64,000 bases of DNA, taken from assembly GCA_041653015.1 (NCBI GenBank), contig JBAZGG010000005.1, positions 1,958-65,957 on the forward strand, written 5' to 3'. The DNA is from Bacilli bacterium (GTDB lineage Bacteria > Bacillota_I > Bacilli_A > RFN20 > CAG-826). Both the position numbers and the translations under genes were made by a program. The notes under the pieces are model-generated. The model did no database searches and was not told where the DNA came from. It saw nothing but the letters and a program-made list of their open reading frames with translations. This document shows, piece by piece, positions 14,187 to 61,958 of this stretch; within the stretch, counting starts at the first letter, position 1; every line of letters begins with the position of its first letter.

Positions 14187-14705
14187 ATGAAATTATTAAT
14201 GACCTTGCATGATGATCAATATACTTCTTGTGGTGTTGACCATGTTCGCGATGTCGTGCGTGCAATAGTGGTGAATGAAGAAGGAAAAATCGCTCTTCAC
14301 AAACTGTATGCTACTGATATGTTTGGGTTTCGCGACTATTATGAAACACCTGGTGGTGGTCGAAAAGAGGGCGAAACGCTTCATGAGGCACTCGAAAGGG
14401 AATTGATTGAAGAATTAGGCGTGAAAGTAAAAATCATGTCTGAAATAGGCGAAATTATCGATTACTATAATCTCATCAAAAGAGAGAATCACAATTATTT
14501 CTATCTCGCAAAAGTGGTGGGATATACCGAAAAGCATCTCGAAGAGAAAGAGAAATCGCTCATCGAAAAGACCATCTGGGTTGACATTGATGCTGCTATC
14601 GACCTTTATAATAATATGCAGAATGTTCTCGTAGGCAAATTGGTTAAGCAAAGAGAATTGCCTATACTAAAACTCGCTAAAGAAATGCTGAATAAATCCC
14701 ATTAG
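14187..14705 (+). CDS. NUDIX hydrolase
   Basis: Nudix box GGRKEGETLHEALERELIEELG. Confidence 0.9.
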   Translation: MKLLMTLHDDQYTSCGVDHVRDVVRAIVVNEEGKIALHKLYATDMFGFRDYYETPGGGRKEGETLHEALERELIEELGVKVKIMSEIGEIIDYYNLIKRENHNYFYLAKVVGYTEKHLEEKEKSLIEKTIWVDIDAAIDLYNNMQNVLVGKLVKQRELPILKLAKEMLNKSH

Positions 14706-54021: not shown

Positions 54022-55191
54022 ATGAAAATTACGGTTGTCTGCGATGTCCTCGGTGAAGAAAACAACGGTACGACGATTGCGGCGATGAACCTCATTCGCT
54101 ATTTGCAGTCGCGTGGACACGAAGTGAGAATCGTCTGCCCTGATAAAGATAAGAAAGATGCCAAAGGCTATTATGTCGTTCCGACATTAAATCTAGGGAT
54201 TTTCAATAATTACATCAAAAAGAACGGTGTAGTCATCTCGAAAGCCGATACGATGATTTTAGCCCGCGCTATTAAAGATGCTGATGTCATCCATATCATG
54301 CTGCCGTTTTCTTTAGGAAGGCGAACAGCTAAAATAGCTCAGAAAATGCATAAGCCTTTAACCGCTGGTTTTCACGCTCAGGCAGAAAACTTGACCAATC
54401 ATGTCTTCTTGATGAATGCTGGCATCGCTAATCTTCTCGTCTATAAAAATTTCTATAGCCATTTCTATCGATATATCGACTGCGTTCACTATCCGACTGA
54501 ATTTATTAAAAACGTCTTTGAATCTAAGACTCATAAGACTAACGCGTATGTCATCTCCAATGGTGTCGTCTCATCATTTGTTAAGAAAGAAGTGGCGAGA
54601 CCTCCTGAATTCAAAGATAGATATCTAATCTTGTTCACCGGTCGCTATTCCAAAGAGAAGTCTCATCACGTCTTAATCGATGCGATTAAACATTCTAAAT
54701 ACAAAGACAAGATTCAATTGATATTCGCTGGCGAAGGACCGCAAAAAAAGAAAATTGAAAAGTTAGGCAGCGAATTGCCACTTCATCCCATCATGAAATT
54801 TTTCTCTCATGAAGAGATCATCAATATGATCAATATGTCGGATCTCTATGTTCATCCCGCCGAGATAGAGATAGAAGCTATCTCTTGCCTTGAAGCGATC
54901 TCCTGCGGTCTCGTTCCTGTCATCTCTGATAGCAAGAGAAGTGCGACGCGCTTTTTTGCTCTCGACGAAAAGAATCTGTTTGAGAACAGAAATAGTCATG
55001 ACCTCGCTAGAAAGATTGACTACTGGCTTGAACACCCACAAGAGAAAATTAAGCGCTCAGAAGACTATCTCGGATATACGAAGCAATTCAGTCGCGATCT
55101 CTGCATGAAGAGAATGGAAGAAATGCTCTATGATGCGATCAGAATCAGCAAAGAGAAATTTGCGAAGATTGAACAGCAGAACAAAAAATAG
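54022..55191 (+). CDS. GT4 glycosyltransferase (glycolipid synthase-like)
   Basis: NGTTIAA, FTGRYSKEK, EIEAISCLEAISCG. Confidence 0.88.
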   Translation: MKITVVCDVLGEENNGTTIAAMNLIRYLQSRGHEVRIVCPDKDKKDAKGYYVVPTLNLGIFNNYIKKNGVVISKADTMILARAIKDADVIHIMLPFSLGRRTAKIAQKMHKPLTAGFHAQAENLTNHVFLMNAGIANLLVYKNFYSHFYRYIDCVHYPTEFIKNVFESKTHKTNAYVISNGVVSSFVKKEVARPPEFKDRYLILFTGRYSKEKSHHVLIDAIKHSKYKDKIQLIFAGEGPQKKKIEKLGSELPLHPIMKFFSHEEIINMINMSDLYVHPAEIEIEAISCLEAISCGLVPVISDSKRSATRFFALDEKNLFENRNSHDLARKIDYWLEHPQEKIKRSEDYLGYTKQFSRDLCMKRMEEMLYDAIRISKEKFAKIEQQNKK

Positions 55192-55194
55192 TTT

Positions 55195-55995
55195 ATGAAA
55201 GCTAAAAAAGTCATCTATTATCACGATCCTCTCAACGACGATTTCGCGGGGACGGAGATCGACACCAAACCGTTGAAGACCGATTTTAAATATGTTCACA
55301 AGAATGTCTTTTGGAAGTTTTCTTCTTTTCTTCTGTATTATTTGCTCGCCATGCCAATTTTATTTTTTTATGCCAAGATCAGATGCGGTGTGCGAGTTAA
55401 GAATAAAAAAGTTCTTCGCCAAGTTCGCAGACGAGGATATTTTCTCTATGGCAATCACACGCAGAGCATCGACGCTTTTACTGGTCATGTGATGGTGGCG
55501 AGGCCTAAAAAAGGATATGTCGTCGCCAATACAGACGCTCTATCAATCAAAGGTCTCGGGTGGCTCGTCATGATGCTCGGCACTTTACCATTGCCGAATA
55601 CCGTCGAAGGGATGAGACGATTCCTCGAGGCAATGGAATATCGCCTCAAGAAGCAGAGAAGATGTATCATCATCTATCCTGAAGCGCACATCTGGCCTTA
55701 CTATAATGACATCAGAGATTTTTCTAATGCATCATTTCGCTATCCGGTGAAATATGACGCTCCCATCATCGCGATGTGCGCTACTTATCGCAAGAGAAGA
55801 ATAAATGGTGATCATAATCGCCCGCGGATGATCATCACGCTCTCGGAGCCATTCTATCCCGATAAGAATTTATCTACGAAAGAAGCGATGAGCGATCTGA
55901 GAGATAAAGTCTATGCTTTTATGAAGCATACGATCAAAGAGAATAAGTCCTATGCATATATCGATTATATCTATAGTCCACACGTCGATAAGTAA
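55195..55995 (+). CDS. PlsC-like acyltransferase
   Basis: GNHTQSID, IYPEAHIW; 3 nt after the GT4 stop. Confidence 0.8.
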   Translation: MKAKKVIYYHDPLNDDFAGTEIDTKPLKTDFKYVHKNVFWKFSSFLLYYLLAMPILFFYAKIRCGVRVKNKKVLRQVRRRGYFLYGNHTQSIDAFTGHVMVARPKKGYVVANTDALSIKGLGWLVMMLGTLPLPNTVEGMRRFLEAMEYRLKKQRRCIIIYPEAHIWPYYNDIRDFSNASFRYPVKYDAPIIAMCATYRKRRINGDHNRPRMIITLSEPFYPDKNLSTKEAMSDLRDKVYAFMKHTIKENKSYAYIDYIYSPHVDK

Positions 55996-56065
55996 AGCAT
56001 CATCATTGACTTTGTGATAATTATTACTCCATAATAAAATCACTTATTGGAGGAAATATTTTATT

Positions 56066-56611
56066 ATGAGCAAATCGTTAAAAGGAACGAAGACTGAAAA
56101 GAATCTTCAGACAGCTTTTGCTGGCGAGTCGCAAGCGCGCAACAAATATACTTATTATGCGAGCAAGGCTAAGAAGGAAGGCTATGAACAGATTTCGGCT
56201 TTGTTTTTAGAGACTGCCGAGAACGAAAGAGAGCACGCCAAACTCTGGTTTAAGCATCTCCATGGTGGTGAAGTGCCAGCGACGGATGTCAATCTCTTAG
56301 ATGCCGCTGATGGCGAGAATTATGAATGGACGACGATGTATGCCGATATGGCAAAAGTAGCCAGAGAAGAAGGATTTCCTGAAATCGCTCTTCAAATGGA
56401 AGGCGTCGCTAAAGTTGAAAAAGAACACGAAGAGAGATATCGTCGGCTATTAGCAAATGTTAAAGGTGGTAAAGTCTTCATCGCTCCCGACGTCGTGGTG
56501 TGGAAGTGCCGCAATTGCGGACATATCCATATCAGCAAGCAAGCTCCTAAAATTTGCCCAGTCTGTGAGCATCCTCAAGCCTACTTTGAACTTCGCGCGA
56601 TAAATTATTAA
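56066..56611 (+). CDS. rbr: Rubrerythrin
   Basis: [39 protein letters not shown]...CPVC. Confidence 0.95.
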
Positions 56612-56718
56612 TGGATAAGAAGATTATTCCCTCACTATGTGAGGGATTTTCTTTTGTTATAAATTATTTATGTCTTGCATTTTTCTTCGATATTATAGAT
56701 AATAAATAAGCACGTATT

Positions 56719-56794
56719 GGACCAGTGGTGTAGCGATTAACATGTCTCCCTGTCACGGAGAAGATCGCGGGTTTAAGTCCCGTCTGGTCCGCCA
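56719..56794 (+). tRNA. tRNA-Asp(GUC) with A19/U56
   Basis: GGACCAG/CTGGTCC; TCTCC-CTGTCAC-GGAGA; G73. Confidence 0.93.
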
Positions 56795-56801
56795 AAAGTG
56801 T

Positions 56802-56877
<76 letters not shown>

Positions 56878-56891
56878 TAATACAAAAAAAT

Positions 56892-56915
56892 AGACGCCGA
56901 TAAGCGTCTTTTTTT
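56892..56915 (+). terminator. Terminator after tRNA-Asp/Phe
   Basis: AGACGC-CGATAA-GCGTCT followed by a T tract. Confidence 0.8.
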
Positions 56916-57050
56916 AATTTAAGATATCATATTTATCAATCCATATAATCCAAAAAATGTCGCGATGTTTAATTGCATATTAACAAAGCGAGTTATTCTT
57001 ACATTTTTAAACGCCCGTTTAACATGAAATAATAGAAATCTACTTTAAAA

Positions 57051-57079
57051 TTGTCTTTCATTATATGCTGTGTTATAGT
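57051..57079 (+). promoter_or_regulatory. mgtA promoter candidate
   Basis: TTGTCT-17 nt-TATAGT with TGn extension. Confidence 0.6.
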
Positions 57080-57110
57080 CGAGACGACATACGAAGGCGA
57101 GGTGGGATAT

Positions 57111-57194
57111 ATGGATAGTATACCTGGGCATTGTAGACCGTATATAGAGAAAACAAATCTATACTATTCGATATCCACTTCTTTCACAAAATAA
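57111..57194 (+). CDS. Candidate 27-aa leader peptide (uORF) upstream of mgtA
   Basis: MDSIPGHCRPYIEKTNLYYSISTSFTK*, preceded by GAGGTG RBS. Confidence 0.5.
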   Translation: MDSIPGHCRPYIEKTNLYYSISTSFTK

Positions 57195-57270
57195 AAGCAT
57201 CATTTCATAGAAGCGACTTATCATTTAGCGCTCATCTGTTTTCGTTCCAAAATCATTGGGAGAAACACTT

Positions 57271-59973
57271 ATGGATAAAAAAAATATTGTCCGCGTTAAA
57301 AAAAACGCTAAGACGAGTTCGAATGAAAATTTAAAAAGAGTTGCCATGATGGATAAGATGAAATTATTCAAACATTTTTCTTCATCTCCATTAGGCTTAA
57401 AAGGCGAAGATATCATCGAAGAGCAGAGAAGCAAGCATGGCAACAATAAGTTTAGCAGTGAGAAAAAGAAATCCGGATTTCGTAAATTCCTCGAAGCGTT
57501 TCTTAATCCGTTTACCGGGATTTTGTTCGTCATCGCGGCCGTTTCCTTTACCACTGACGTCGTGCTCGCTGATCCAAATAGCAGAAACTATGTGACGTGT
57601 TCTATCATCGTCGTCTTGGTTCTTTTCTCAGGCGTATTGCGATTTGTCCAGGAGTTGAAGAGTTCAAAAGCGATGGATAGTCTCCTCTCCATGATTGAAA
57701 CCACAACCGCTGTGATGCGAGATGGAATTACAAAAGAGATACCGATCGATGAAGTGGTGGTGGGCGATATCATCCATCTGACCGCTGGTGATATCGTTCC
57801 ATGCGATGGAAGAATCATCGATGCCAAAGACTTGTTTATCACTCAAGCCGCCCTCACTGGCGAATCTGAACCAGCGGAGAAATCTCCTGTTTGTGATCAT
57901 CCGATACTCAAAACGATCACCGATGTTCGCAGCTTGGTTTTTATGGGCACCACCGTGTTGAGCGGAAGCGCAAATATGATCGCTATTCAAGTCGGTAAAA
58001 ACACGATTTTAGGCGAGACGGCAAAAACGCTGACCGTCAAGGTTCCACCGACCAGTTTTGAAAAGGGCATCAAATCGATATCGCTGATACTGATCTATTT
58101 CATGGTCGTGATGGCCACGATCGTCTTGCTCATCAACGGTTTTTTGAAAAACAATTGGCTCAGCGCTTTCTTATTCGCGATCTCTGTCGCCGTCGGTCTG
58201 ACGCCAGAGATGCTGCCGATGATCGTCACGACCTGCTTAGCGAAAGGCGCGACGCTGATGGCGAAGAAAAAAGTCATCATCAAAAAGCTCGATTCGATTC
58301 AGAATTTTGGCGCGATGGATATTTTGTGCACGGATAAAACGGGGACGTTGACGCAAGATCAAGTCGTTCTTGAGCAGCATTTAGATGTCCATGGACAAGA
58401 TGATACGCGCGTGCTTCGTCACGCCTTTTTAAATGCCTATTATCAAACTGGGCTTAAAAATATTCTCGATCTATCCATCATCAACAAAACGAATGAACTT
58501 TCGGCAAAGTTTAGCGAATTAAAAGCTCTGCAGAGCGATTACCAAAAAGTGGATGAGATACCATTTGATTTCGCTCGTCGAAGGATGAGCGTCGTGGTCA
58601 AAAATAAGATGGGCAAAGTCCAGGTTATCACCAAAGGTGCAGTAGAAGAGATCATCAATATCTGTTCATTTGTGGAATATCATGGAAAAGTCGAACCATT
58701 GACGGCGGATTTGAAGAAGGAGATATTCGCGAACGTGGCTAAACTCAACGCGAATGGAATGCGCGTCATCGCTGTCGCGCAGAAGACGAATCCAGCTCCA
58801 GTCGGGACCTTCTCTGTCAAAGATGAGGAGGAAATGGTTCTCATCGGTTATTTGACATTCCTCGATCCCGCCAAACCATCTGCCAAAGCTGCGATCAAAG
58901 AATTGTTGCAATATGGAGTAAATATTAAAATTCTCACCGGAGACAATGAGATTGTCACGCAGAGAATCTGTCAAGATGTCGGCTTGAATGCGAAGAGCAT
59001 CATGCTCGGTTCGGAAGTGGATGAACTGAGCGATAGCCAATTGAAACTTCGAGTGGATGAGACTGTTATTTTTGCTAAACTCCTACCCGAACAAAAAGCT
59101 CGCGTCGTTCGTTTGCTAAAAGCTAAAGGCCATGTCGTCGGATATATGGGCGATGGCATCAATGACGCTCCCGCGATGCGCGAAGCCGATATAGGGATAA
59201 GCGTCGATAGCGCTGTCGATATCGCTAAAGAATCAGCCGATGTTATTCTGCTCGAAAAGAATCTCAATGTTCTCAAAGAGGGATTGATTGAAGGGCGAAA
59301 AGTATATAACAATCTGATGAAGTATATCAAGATTACCGCCAGCTCTAATTTTGGCAATATGCTCTCCGTCGTCATCGCCAGTATCATGCTGCCATTCCTG
59401 CCCATGCTCCCAGTCCAATTGATTCTGCTCAATATGATCTACGACATTTCTTGTACCGCTCTGCCGTGGGATAATGTCGATCCTGAATACCTTCTCCAAC
59501 CGAGAAAATGGGAAGCCAAAGACATCGTTCGCTTCGTCTTTTCATTCGGTCCGATCTCATCCATTTTTGATATCACGACATTCGTCATGCTCTTCTACAT
59601 ATTCGGTCCGATGGCTTTTGGTGGATCATACGATAGTTTATCTATCGAACAACAATTTAGCTTTGCTATGCTCTTTCAAACCGGTTGGTTCATCGAGTCG
59701 ATATGGACTCAACTCGTCGTCATTCACATCCTGCGTTCAAAACGTTTTCCTCTCGTCCAATCCAAAGCCGCTCCGATGGTTTATTTCTTTACGGTCATGA
59801 TCATCATATTCTCTTCTCTAATCTGCTATATACCATATGTGAGTGAAGCCTTCCATCTCTGGAATATCACGCCTATATTCTTCCTCTATGTCATCGGTGT
59901 GGTAGTGGTCTATGCTCTCATCGCTTCCTTAGTGAAGATGATCTATGTAAAAAAGCATCCATCATTCTTATAA
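57271..59973 (+). CDS. mgtA: Magnesium-translocating P-type ATPase (P3B)
   Basis: TGES, GLTPEMLP, DKTGTLT, PFDFARRRMS, GDGINDAP, SSNFGN; ATG 57271 after GGGAG. Confidence 0.92.
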   Translation: MDKKNIVRVKKNAKTSSNENLKRVAMMDKMKLFKHFSSSPLGLKGEDIIEEQRSKHGNNKFSSEKKKSGFRKFLEAFLNPFTGILFVIAAVSFTTDVVLADPNSRNYVTCSIIVVLVLFSGVLRFVQELKSSKAMDSLLSMIETTTAVMRDGITKEIPIDEVVVGDIIHLTAGDIVPCDGRIIDAKDLFITQAALTGESEPAEKSPVCDHPILKTITDVRSLVFMGTTVLSGSANMIAIQVGKNTILGETAKTLTVKVPPTSFEKGIKSISLILIYFMVVMATIVLLINGFLKNNWLSAFLFAISVAVGLTPEMLPMIVTTCLAKGATLMAKKKVIIKKLDSIQNFGAMDILCTDKTGTLTQDQVVLEQHLDVHGQDDTRVLRHAFLNAYYQTGLKNILDLSIINKTNELSAKFSELKALQSDYQKVDEIPFDFARRRMSVVVKNKMGKVQVITKGAVEEIINICSFVEYHGKVEPLTADLKKEIFANVAKLNANGMRVIAVAQKTNPAPVGTFSVKDEEEMVLIGYLTFLDPAKPSAKAAIKELLQYGVNIKILTGDNEIVTQRICQDVGLNAKSIMLGSEVDELSDSQLKLRVDETVIFAKLLPEQKARVVRLLKAKGHVVGYMGDGINDAPAMREADIGISVDSAVDIAKESADVILLEKNLNVLKEGLIEGRKVYNNLMKYIKITASSNFGNMLSVVIASIMLPFLPMLPVQLILLNMIYDISCTALPWDNVDPEYLLQPRKWEAKDIVRFVFSFGPISSIFDITTFVMLFYIFGPMAFGGSYDSLSIEQQFSFAMLFQTGWFIESIWTQLVVIHILRSKRFPLVQSKAAPMVYFFTVMIIIFSSLICYIPYVSEAFHLWNITPIFFLYVIGVVVVYALIASLVKMIYVKKHPSFL

Positions 59974-60104: not shown

Positions 60105-61958
60105 ATGGAAGAACAGAATGATTTATTAGAACCGGTACGAATATATAATTCTAAATTAAAAGATCAATTTCACCAAAATGCCGAATCATTTTTTGATGAA
60201 CTGACAAAAAAAGCTGGCACCGATATAGGTGCCAACCGAGTGACTATCAATGAATATAAACAGCTGTGCACTCAATTGGATAAAGGGATCAGCAAGAAAA
60301 AAGGTTTAACTAAGTTAAAAGGATTTTTAATCGCTCTCACCATCATCGCTCTTGTGGCCGCTATCGTCCTGTTCGTGATGTGCGGAATTAATAAGGCTAG
60401 CAATTTTGTTCTATTCATCATCGTCGGCATCTGTCTCGTCTTGTTTGCTGCTGGGATGATCGTTCTTCTCGCCGTTAAAATTCGAACAGCGTTAAACGAC
60501 GCAAAAAAAGTGGTGGAGAAATTACAAAAAGCCTGTGAAGAGAAAAAGAACGAGGGATTCGTTCAGATGAAATCGTTGAATGCTTCCTATGATTGGAACA
60601 TTCCTATCTCTCTCGCCACTAAGACGACACCACTCATTCAATTAGATACTTTTTTTAGCGCGGATAAATATGAATATCTCCACGAAAAATATGGCTTCAA
60701 TGAAAACACGGATGAATCGATTTCGAGCATTTATGCTCAATCGGGTTCAATTCTAGGCAACCCATTCGTCATCAAGCGCGACTACTCCCGACGCATGGGA
60801 ACATACACATATGAAGGCAGCATCACCATTTCGTGGACGACGACCATTCCTACGAAAGATGGATATCAAACCGTCACGCACACACAAACGTTGACAGCGA
60901 CCGTGACAAAACCTAAACCATACTACTATCTCGATACTTGTCTCATCTTCGGCTCTGAAGCCGCTCCTAGGTTGAGCTTTTCTCGACAGCCGAGCGATGC
61001 TAACAAAATGTCAGAAAAAGATATTGATAGGTATGTCAAATCATTTGATAAGAAACTCGATAAGATGGTGGAGGAGAGCTTGAAGAAAAATCAAAATTTC
61101 ACTCCGCTGACGAATACTGAATTTGAAGCCTTATTCAACGCTTTAAACCGCGACAACGAAGTCGAGTTTCGTTTATTGTTCACCCCTCTAGCGCAGAAGA
61201 GCATGATCGAACTCATAAAATCGAAAGTGCCATTTGGAGATAATTTCTCCTTTGTTAAAAGTCATTGCCTGAATTATATCGATGCTCGCCACATGGAGAA
61301 TGCTATGCTAGAATTTTCTCCGTCGATGTTCATCGATTTCGATTACGACAATGCCAAGTTACATTTTATAAACACTTGCGATGATTATTTTAGAAACCTA
61401 TTCTTCCAATTGGCGCCTCTTCTAACCATTCCTCTCTACCAGCAGCACAAAGCTTTTGAATACATCTATCAGCAGCCATACTACGGCAATATCACGAGAT
61501 TTGAAGTGGAATCGATGGCGAACTCCTATAGCTCTGCGCTATTTAAGAATCCGATCAGCGCTACGCCCGCCATTTTAAAGAGCATGTTCGAGAAAAAGGA
61601 AGGCAAAGCCGATAAAGTCACCATCCGCGCTCATTCGTATAAGACGATTGAACACATCGAAATCGTTACGAAGATGGGCGGCGATGGTAAGATGCATGAC
61701 ATCCCGGTCCACTGGTTGGAGTATATTCCGATCAGCCAGGACACACCATTTATGGTGCAGGAGTACAAAGCCACCTATCCCGAATTCAAGAATTCAATCG
61801 ATTCTGGAAAATTTAACGATTTTGCTCGCAAGAATGTCGGCGATGGTGGCATACTATTTAAAAGAGGTTTAATTTCATTTCTTACTAACAAGCAGATGGC
61901 GAGTTATAATGATAATGAATTAAATACATTACTTAATCTAAACAAGGGGGAAAAATAA
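60105..61958 (+). CDS. LemA-associated membrane protein (MAG1210-like)
   Basis: Two N-proximal TMs, then a large soluble domain (SGSILGNPF, YEGSITISW, NRDNEVEFRLLFTPLAQ); coupled to lemA. Family name from recollection. Confidence 0.6.
   Translation: MEEQNDLLEPVRIYNSKLKDQFHQNAESFFDELTKKAGTDIGANRVTINEYKQLCTQLDKGISKKKGLTKLKGFLIALTIIALVAAIVLFVMCGINKASNFVLFIIVGICLVLFAAGMIVLLAVKIRTALNDAKKVVEKLQKACEEKKNEGFVQMKSLNASYDWNIPISLATKTTPLIQLDTFFSADKYEYLHEKYGFNENTDESISSIYAQSGSILGNPFVIKRDYSRRMGTYTYEGSITISWTTTIPTKDGYQTVTHTQTLTATVTKPKPYYYLDTCLIFGSEAAPRLSFSRQPSDANKMSEKDIDRYVKSFDKKLDKMVEESLKKNQNFTPLTNTEFEALFNALNRDNEVEFRLLFTPLAQKSMIELIKSKVPFGDNFSFVKSHCLNYIDARHMENAMLEFSPSMFIDFDYDNAKLHFINTCDDYFRNLFFQLAPLLTIPLYQQHKAFEYIYQQPYYGNITRFEVESMANSYSSALFKNPISATPAILKSMFEKKEGKADKVTIRAHSYKTIEHIEIVTKMGGDGKMHDIPVHWLEYIPISQDTPFMVQEYKATYPEFKNSIDSGKFNDFARKNVGDGGILFKRGLISFLTNKQMASYNDNELNTLLNLNKGEK

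Follow-up and report, generated by a model that had tools for sequence, protein, structure and literature searches.

The control of Mg2+ import is a textbook case of RNA sensing, for which Gram-positive bacteria are said to use the M-box riboswitch and enterobacteria leader peptides that are read by the ribosome. Translational attenuation is known from ermC and cat, in Rho-independent Gram-positive contexts, where a ribosome on strand 1 of the leader leads to 2:3 pairing, which unmasks a downstream ribosome-binding site (RBS). Here, we analyzed the leader of mgtA, the gene for a Mg2+-importing P-type ATPase, in a 64,000-nt stretch of contig JBAZGG010000005.1 from a Bacilli bacterium (the whole stretch is referred to as the window). 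This leader carries a short upstream open reading frame (uORF) and is probably a ribosome-operated leader-peptide switch that acts in cis, in the manner of mgtQ and mgtL or of ermC, to set the level of MgtA translation. In Salmonella mgtQ (Choi et al. 2021), an 8-codon ORF encoding Asp2, Pro4, and Glu5 lies in the mgtC–mgtB intergenic region; when a ribosome occupies strand 1, strands 2 and 3 pair and the mgtB RBS is freed, and the acidic codons are required and are counteracted by L31 (PMC8092293). MgtL and other N-terminal sequences with Asp, Glu, and Pro, especially where the neighboring residues are small, undergo more abortive translation at low Mg2+ (10.1101/2021.02.02.429294). In Mycobacterium tuberculosis, an M-box and a conserved uORF2 (Rv1805A) precede pe20/mgtC and act with Rho, and the authors call the peptide mycobacteria-specific (PMC12810186).

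The mgtA gene lies on the forward strand (57271–59973), as do all leader parts described here, and its 900-amino acid product matched TIGR01524 in a profile search with 1039.8 bits (cut-off, 610.75). A consensus scan located a promoter at 57051–57079, comprising a −35 box TTGTCT (57051–57056), a 17-nt spacer, and the TG-extended −10 box TGTTATAGT (57071–57079), in which TATAGT is preceded by TG. Transcription would start at approximately 57086, and the leader is about 185 nt in length. The uORF (57111–57194) consists of 27 codons (MDSIPGHCRPYIEKTNLYYSISTSFTK), stops with TAA at 57192–57194, and is preceded by the Shine–Dalgarno (SD) sequence GAGGTG (57099–57104) six bases 5′ of its ATG. Folding yielded a long hairpin, P1, whose 5′ arm (strand A, 57093–57122) holds this SD, the AUG (57111–57113), and codons 2–4, and whose 3′ arm (strand B, 57160–57185), an anti-SD in the 3′ part of the uORF, ends 9 nt short of the stop codon; the 26 bp are arranged in four blocks and cover the SD and the UG of the AUG. 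A first-pass annotation of this DNA had proposed the promoter, the 27-codon uORF, and a long helix hiding the uORF RBS, at coordinates that proved right within a base or two, and the helix turned out larger than noted. It had also described a 12-bp hairpin over the mgtA SD. This hairpin, P2 (57237–57267), is present, with a 2-nt bulge, the loop AATCA, and the mgtA SD GGGAGA (57258–57263) in its 3′ strand; its 5′ strand had been given one T short (TGTTTTCGTTCCAA is correct), and it is only partly conserved. A third strand had been overlooked: strand C (57208–57229), which forms the 5′ part of a middle hairpin, P1.5 (57207–57239), and which is by folding a mimic of strand A and an alternative partner of strand B.

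The P1 hairpin folded with −24 kcal/mol (z = −2.2; 2 of 200 shuffles folded equally well), and the A:B duplex alone gave −24.4 kcal/mol (z = −3.7) in the window. P2 by itself was weak (−7.5 kcal/mol, z = −1.7), with 14 of 200 shuffles as good, and the whole leader reached only z = −1.0 in single-sequence folding. Taken singly, the helices of the window are thus only modestly above chance, and the case rests on comparison with other leaders.

Five distinct loci whose MgtA is 70–80% identical (L002, L111, L113, L115, and L117) were combined with the window into a set of close orthologues, hereafter the clade. The leader was found 5′ of MgtA with the same layout in all five. A TGnTATAGT box stands in each of the six leaders, the variant in L113 being TATATT, and the five other loci share GAARGnGAGGTG, a spacer of 6–7 nt, and then ATGGA. 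Their uORFs have 29–30 codons. The encoded peptides begin MDSIPGHC in the window, MDGLPRHY in L002, MDGLPRQC in L111, MDGLPGDS in L113, MESSPDGL in L115, and MDDLPDGS in L117, so that Asp/Glu2 and Pro5 (M-D/E-x-x-P) are invariant and nothing else is conserved; the Pro5 codon varies between CCT, CCC, and CCG, and past about residue 5–6 the peptides are unrelated. Looser versions of the leader stand 5′ of MgtA in L003 (53% identity) and in Metamycoplasma spumans (L082, with a uORF starting MDIPSYERS). A metagenome scan with MgtA returned no relative above ~60% identity, which left the clade unchanged and added members to the wider family described below. A covariance model built from the six clade leaders (R1) found one copy in the window's own genome (G000) and strong matches in 4 of 401 genomes of the order. 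The R1 element lies directly 5′ of mgtA in G000, G018, and G041, and the leader in G294 is identical to that of L115. These comparisons support the leader as a conserved cis-acting element of mgtA in a Bacilli/Erysipelotrichia-like lineage of Bacillota; MgtA proteins of the same cluster carry the labels Erysipelotrichaceae, Erysipelotrichia, or Bacilli metagenome-assembled genomes.

Three weak R1 matches were discarded as false. One, at 14390–14488 of the window, sits within a 172-amino acid ORF, another (L204) is a gene start, probably of a sigma factor, and the third (L205) is the start of a CorB/CNNM-type-looking gene. This last gene, of a Mg2+-related transporter type, starts with MDGLS at ~1524–1560 of L205, and its bases (ATGGATGGTCTG) and SD context are near those of the clade uORFs, probably by coincidence. 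On the minus strand of L003 (~4480–4345), a second small ORF (MDSYVSSMMLIKIQSNRWIFLT) has the same start as the window uORF (ATGGATAGT); it is followed by a clean intrinsic terminator, with the main uORF leader just downstream, and may represent a tandem leader.

The same long hairpin folded in each clade leader, and positions −12 to +11 around the AUG were paired in nine of nine related leaders despite differences in the SD–AUG spacer. The spacer is under neither coding nor SD constraint. Its sequence is GGATAT in the window, AGTGCG in L002, AGTGCT in L111, GGTATT in L113, GGTGCT in L115, GTGCTTC in L117, and AGCGAT in L003, and in each of these the partner strand matches. Across the P1 alignment, 84% of cells were paired, compared with 41–56% when the partners were slid by 1–3 columns; four pairs are altered on both sides, and the covariation score was matched by 3 of 500 shuffles. 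Within the 3′ arm, the box ACTATTCG encodes T-I-R in L111 and L113 and Y-S in the window; as its frame differs among leaders, the box is conserved as RNA. A 92%-identical strain, known from a bioreactor metagenome contig, carries three changes in strand B (57169 C>T, 57177 A>G, and 57182 T>C), all of which keep pairing and at least two of which alter the peptide (S>L and T>A). Both of its P2 substitutions sit in the loop. A 1-nt deletion at 57188 extends its uORF to 32 codons, codons 1–19 being unchanged. As judged from these patterns of substitution, P1 is under selection at the RNA level.

The same data bear on the alternative that the uORF encodes a functional small protein, for instance a transporter partner like MgtR, MgtS, or MgtU, with the hairpins being incidental. 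Such a role would fit an ORF kept at 27–30 codons behind a strong SD and called as a gene in one assembly (L112). Against this stand the unrelated peptides beyond residue 5–6, the 3′ box whose frame differs among leaders, and the close strain, in which two changes are non-synonymous and a frameshift relocates the stop; a family search with the peptide returned no match either. On the unrelated peptides, the box read in different frames, and the strain frameshift, the small protein was rejected, and we consider it very improbable.

Strand C has the look of a worn copy of the P1 5′ arm (GAGTGCTATGG in the arm and AAGTGCTCATC in C), and the conserved AAGTGCT box is explained by this mimicry. B:C pairing was significant in six of seven clade sequences, namely L002 (−21.1 kcal/mol, z = −3.8), L111 (−20.0 kcal/mol, z = −3.8), L113 (−16.4 kcal/mol, z = −4.4), L115 (−22.9 kcal/mol, z = −3.6), L117 (−22.4 kcal/mol, z = −4.0), and the strain variant (−18.1 kcal/mol, z = −5.5); the seventh, the window allele, gave −8.0 kcal/mol (z = −1.1). 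Cognate B:C pairs averaged −18.4 kcal/mol versus −11.6 ± 3.8 kcal/mol for B and C taken from different leaders, so that the two strands co-evolve. Strand C overlaps the anti-SD strand of the SD hairpin in L113, L115, and L117; in the window, L002, and L111 it abuts that strand or overlaps it by 3–4 nt only. The predicted strand layout of the clade would thus be that of a classical translational attenuator, which forms either A:B together with the SD hairpin or B:C. Pairing of strand B with the mgtA SD, or of strand A with the anti-SD, was no better than in shuffles and was dropped. The window allele, with its weak B:C, was also seen in three other metagenomes, and the 92%-identical strain, compared with it over 57098–57253, has a much stronger B:C helix (−18 versus −8 kcal/mol); the setting of the switch may thus differ between these alleles.

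A search of the clade leaders for intrinsic terminators returned none, nor is any helix followed by one. In the window, P1.5 with TTTTCGTT has a terminator-like look; it is not conserved and was not adopted as a terminator.

A survey of 160 further mgtA loci placed the leader in a wider family. SD-preceded uORFs of 13–60 codons were found 5′ of mgtA in many Clostridium, Thermoanaerobacter, Tissierella, Oscillospiraceae, termite-gut, and Mycoplasmopsis loci. The family was defined as a strong SD (GAGGTG or GGAGG), a spacer of 5–7 nt, and a start codon followed by GAN (Asp/Glu), 5′ of mgtA and in the same sense, an arrangement present at 57099–57116 of the window. This motif occurs at 0.34 per kb 5′ of mgtA versus 0.009 per kb elsewhere in the same loci, a 39-fold enrichment. 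With the second codon left unrestricted, 32 of 40 SD-preceded uORFs upstream of mgtA start with M-D/E, compared with 8 of 150 elsewhere. Asp, Glu, Pro, Gly, and Ser make up 78% of residues 2–7 and 34% of residues 9–25 in the family uORFs, typical starts being MDPDGGS, MDDDGGS, MESDGSS, MEAGSSS, and MDSGPSC. A helix between the SD/AUG and the 3′ part of the uORF had z below −2 in 26 of 44 family members, and the window leader has a helix of this strength. In 22 uORF-bearing loci, an M-box aptamer and a terminator stand just 5′ of the uORF; an M-box is lacking in about nine others outside the window clade. The clearest link is provided by L208, one of the 22, whose MgtA is 58% identical; its 111-bit M-box is followed by a terminator, and the uORF beyond it (MESIPLFNN) shows the self-locking helix as well. 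Among the nearest outgroups, L206 and L209 each carry an M-box but lack a uORF, and L207 has neither M-box nor leader. Since the uORF family normally lies 3′ of an M-box, the simplest history of the M-box-less window clade would be a secondary loss. The suggestion of the first-pass annotation that the leader is independent of mgtL holds insofar as it has no sequence relation to enterobacterial mgtL; the leader is not an invention of this lineage, being part of a broad family usually found 3′ of an M-box. Rfam 15 has no family for a mgtA uORF leader, and no description of a Firmicute mgtA uORF was found in the full-text literature, the coverage of which did not extend to subscription journals. 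The family is widespread and apparently undescribed, and its type of mechanism is already known.

In L031, L032, L033, L035, L039, L042, L048, L069, L089, L095, and others, a conserved uORF with an SD occupies part of the 200–400 nt that separate the M-box terminator from mgtA. The uORFs of M-box-controlled mgtA loci start M-D/E-x-G-S-S and have an invariant AGTAGTAG-like box, examples being L048 (747–878) and L035 (1303–1392). In L048, a terminator-like hairpin has a loop that pairs over 15 bp with the uORF SD and AUG.

From these parts, the following sequence of events can be proposed. The leader would be transcribed from its own TG-extended promoter, and its default fold would mask both ribosome-binding sites, that of the uORF by A:B (P1) and the mgtA SD by P1.5 and P2. 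A ribosome could load on the uORF only ahead of strand B transcription or during breathing of P1. While on strand A, it would leave strand B free to pair with strand C, just 3′ of the uORF stop. The peptide N terminus (M-D/E-x-x-P in the clade and, in the wider family, M-D/E followed by residues rich in Gly, Ser, Asp, and Pro) may slow or destabilize the ribosome when Mg2+ is scarce, and a longer dwell on strand A would prolong B:C and give more mgtA translation. Quick and full translation of the uORF would let P1 and P2 re-form. The analysis establishes the parts, their conservation and covariation, their exclusive association with mgtA, and the absence of an M-box and of Rho; translation of the uORF, the direction of its effect, Mg2+ as the signal, and the reach of B:C to the mgtA RBS are all steps that we infer.

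The reach to the mgtA RBS was examined by folding the leaders while strand A was occupied by a ribosome footprint. Under this constraint, the mgtA SD became clearly more open in L113 (unpaired probability, 0.18 to 0.68) and slightly so in L111 (0.13 to 0.27), and footprints at the uORF start, middle, or stop caused no consistent shift in mgtA SD exposure on folding. Conservation is uneven along the leader: the uORF, P1, Asp/Glu2, and Pro5 are kept in the clade, whereas P2 is strong in only four of seven leaders. The mgtA SD is mostly paired in the window, L111, L113, and L003 and not in L002 and L115. With the SD freed clearly in L113 alone and P2 patchy, the step from uORF state to mgtA translation is a putative one.

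A number of observations weigh against the proposed switch. With the footprint on strand A of the window leader, the unpaired probability of the mgtA SD showed no rise (0.17 to 0.12). The window's own B:C is the weak one of the set, L002 and L115 have a weak P2 or none, and the clade alignment comprises six distinct sequences only. Among residues 2–7, the window peptide has just D2 and P5 from the set Asp, Glu, and Pro (clade members have 2–4), which is fewer than in MgtL (MEPDPT) or MgtQ. The codons involved are GAN, CCN, and GGN, so that conservation of amino acids and of dinucleotides is inseparable. The sole RNA-seq trace is one 151-nt contig of the variant strain (57038–57187), which begins 5′ of where transcription is predicted to start and may stem from DNA. 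A single proline is no known stall site (PMC8092293). In the compact relatives L156, L143, and L136, the partner of the mgtA SD is the end of the uORF coding sequence or the bases just 3′ of the stop, which suggests plain positive coupling, contrary to a logic of abortion at low Mg2+.

Under such coupling, P1 alone would gate the uORF, and full translation of the uORF would open the downstream structure or lead to re-initiation, turning mgtA on. P1 might respond to Mg2+ directly, as a long imperfect helix whose stability depends on cations, or simply limit initiation, and the N terminus would reflect RNA pairing or initiation efficiency and not a nascent-peptide sensor. Besides the compact members, in which the 5′ strand of the mgtA SD hairpin falls in or just past the end of the uORF, this account draws on the short distance from stop to mgtA start in L156, L143, L136, and L208 (18–45 nt), on the hiding of the uORF SD and AUG by P1 in most members, and on the unreliable freeing of the mgtA SD by a block on strand A. 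In the window, however, the uORF stop is 43 nt from P2 and 76 nt from the mgtA AUG (56–83 nt across the clade), so that a ribosome terminating there would not reach P2 to melt it. Coupling would also leave the cognate-specific B:C without a role and the bias of residues 2–7 toward Asp, Glu, Gly, Ser, and Pro unexplained, and we regard it as unlikely. The attenuator-like switch, with its alternative use of strand B, remains our preferred explanation.

Known regulators and other Mg2+ transporters were then sought around the locus and in its genome (a 1.1-Mb assembly, 93% complete). The absence of an M-box, already claimed in the first pass, was borne out: covariance scans with RF00380 (M-box) and RF01056 (Mg_sensor) gave no match at E ≤ 10 within 55000–59000, and no M-box was found in the whole genome at E ≤ 1. 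With membership set at ≥ 44 bits for the Rfam model, the same search detected M-boxes of 79–151 bits in 24 related mgtA loci; none was found in the clade loci or in L003. A sensitive Rfam scan of 55000–59000 matched two tRNAs only. No rho gene was found in the genome, TIGR00767 giving just two weak matches (35.5 and 31.5 bits versus a cut-off of 509), and Rho-dependent attenuation as in Salmonella mgtA was thereby ruled out. Neither CorA nor MgtE was found in the genome, and MgtA is therefore its only recognizable dedicated Mg2+ importer. Close MgtA orthologues are present in only few genomes of the family to which this genome belongs. Most members of that family have no MgtA orthologue, the best match in 22 of 24 sampled genera being other P-type ATPases.

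A leader with no terminator in a genome with no Rho would also be compatible with control through transcript half-life, in which P1, or a ribosome on the 5′-proximal SD, shields the mRNA from 5′-to-3′ decay. The Bacillus aprE and ermC leaders are 5′ stabilizers of this kind. P1 starts about 7 nt from the inferred 5′ end, and the link from switch to mgtA RBS was weak in folding, both of which are in line with stabilization. That 5′ end is a predicted transcription start only, strand C and the conserved peptide start would be left unexplained, and the uORFs of M-box loci are hundreds of nt away from the 5′ end. An mRNA-stability element is thus quite improbable, and we return to the leader-peptide switch.

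A more far-reaching form of that switch is possible, although on balance doubtful. In it, the leader would be an independently evolved and widespread Gram-positive counterpart of MgtL and MgtQ that locks itself and through whose acidic N terminus, with its small residues, the ribosome reports cytoplasmic Mg2+; it would normally serve as a second checkpoint behind an M-box and here, in a reduced genome with neither Rho nor an M-box, as the sole regulator of the only recognizable Mg2+ importer.

Upstream of the mgtA leader lie a rubrerythrin gene (56066–56611), genes for tRNA-Asp and tRNA-Phe (56719–56877), and an intrinsic terminator (56892–56909) between the tRNAs and the mgtA promoter. The order of rubrerythrin and two tRNAs (56066–56909 with the terminator), followed by the mgtA leader, is also seen in L115, and in L130 and L137 the end of a tRNA is only ~30–40 nt 5′ of the uORF. 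Right after mgtA, a 617-amino acid ORF at 60105–61958 had no match in a Pfam search; its position is taken by a heavy-metal (HMA) P-type ATPase in orthologous loci. The window sequence is present in groundwater, wastewater, and landfill metagenomes.

Among the systems with which the leader was compared, ermC and cat share its proposed logic of 1:2 and 3:4 versus 2:3 pairing; their signal is a ribosome-bound antibiotic, and the SD of their own leader is free, unlike here. The likeness to mgtQ lies in a short ORF with a strong SD before a gene for a Mg2+ P-type ATPase, Asp2 in both, a proline and an acidic residue near the start, four strands that are predicted to form 1:2 and 3:4 or 2:3 (the 2:3 pairing being weak in the window), and a transporter RBS held in a hairpin, with control that would be translational and involve no termination. 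It differs from mgtQ in that there is no sequence similarity, the uORF has 27–30 codons instead of 8 and stands in a 5′ leader and not in an intergenic region, strand 1 holds the SD and AUG of the uORF itself, so that the uORF locks itself, and the release of the mgtA SD by 2:3 pairing was not reproduced by folding of the window. With the enterobacterial MgtL leader (RF01056), it has in common a leader peptide before mgtA with an acidic residue and a proline near the N terminus (only D2 and P5 in the window) and predicted alternative helices that overlap the uORF. No covariance-model match connects the two, however; MgtL acts via Rho-dependent termination, for which the present genome has no rho, and the MgtL RBS is not locked by its own ORF.

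The M-box (RF00380) likewise controls Mg2+ transporter genes in Bacillota and in relatives stands in the same leader, 5′ of the homologous uORF; unlike the M-box, the window element has no conserved aptamer-like core, its apical region being variable coding sequence. Judging from this locus and its relatives, many Bacillota would employ a leader peptide as well, frequently one placed in series with the M-box. If this is correct, mgtA is controlled in two layers, by the M-box riboswitch on transcription and by the ribosome on translation, which is directly testable, and the M-box-less leader of the window would be the simplest natural version of the peptide layer alone. Rfam would moreover gain a family that it lacks, which would help in annotating the 200–400 nt from M-box terminators to mgtA. 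Closest to it in the literature is the mycobacterial pair of M-box and uORF2. By description, M. tuberculosis uORF2 resembles the present family in being a conserved small uORF with a conserved N terminus and an invariant proline, located 3′ of an M-box in a Mg2+-related leader; the difference is that it precedes pe20/mgtC and not mgtA.

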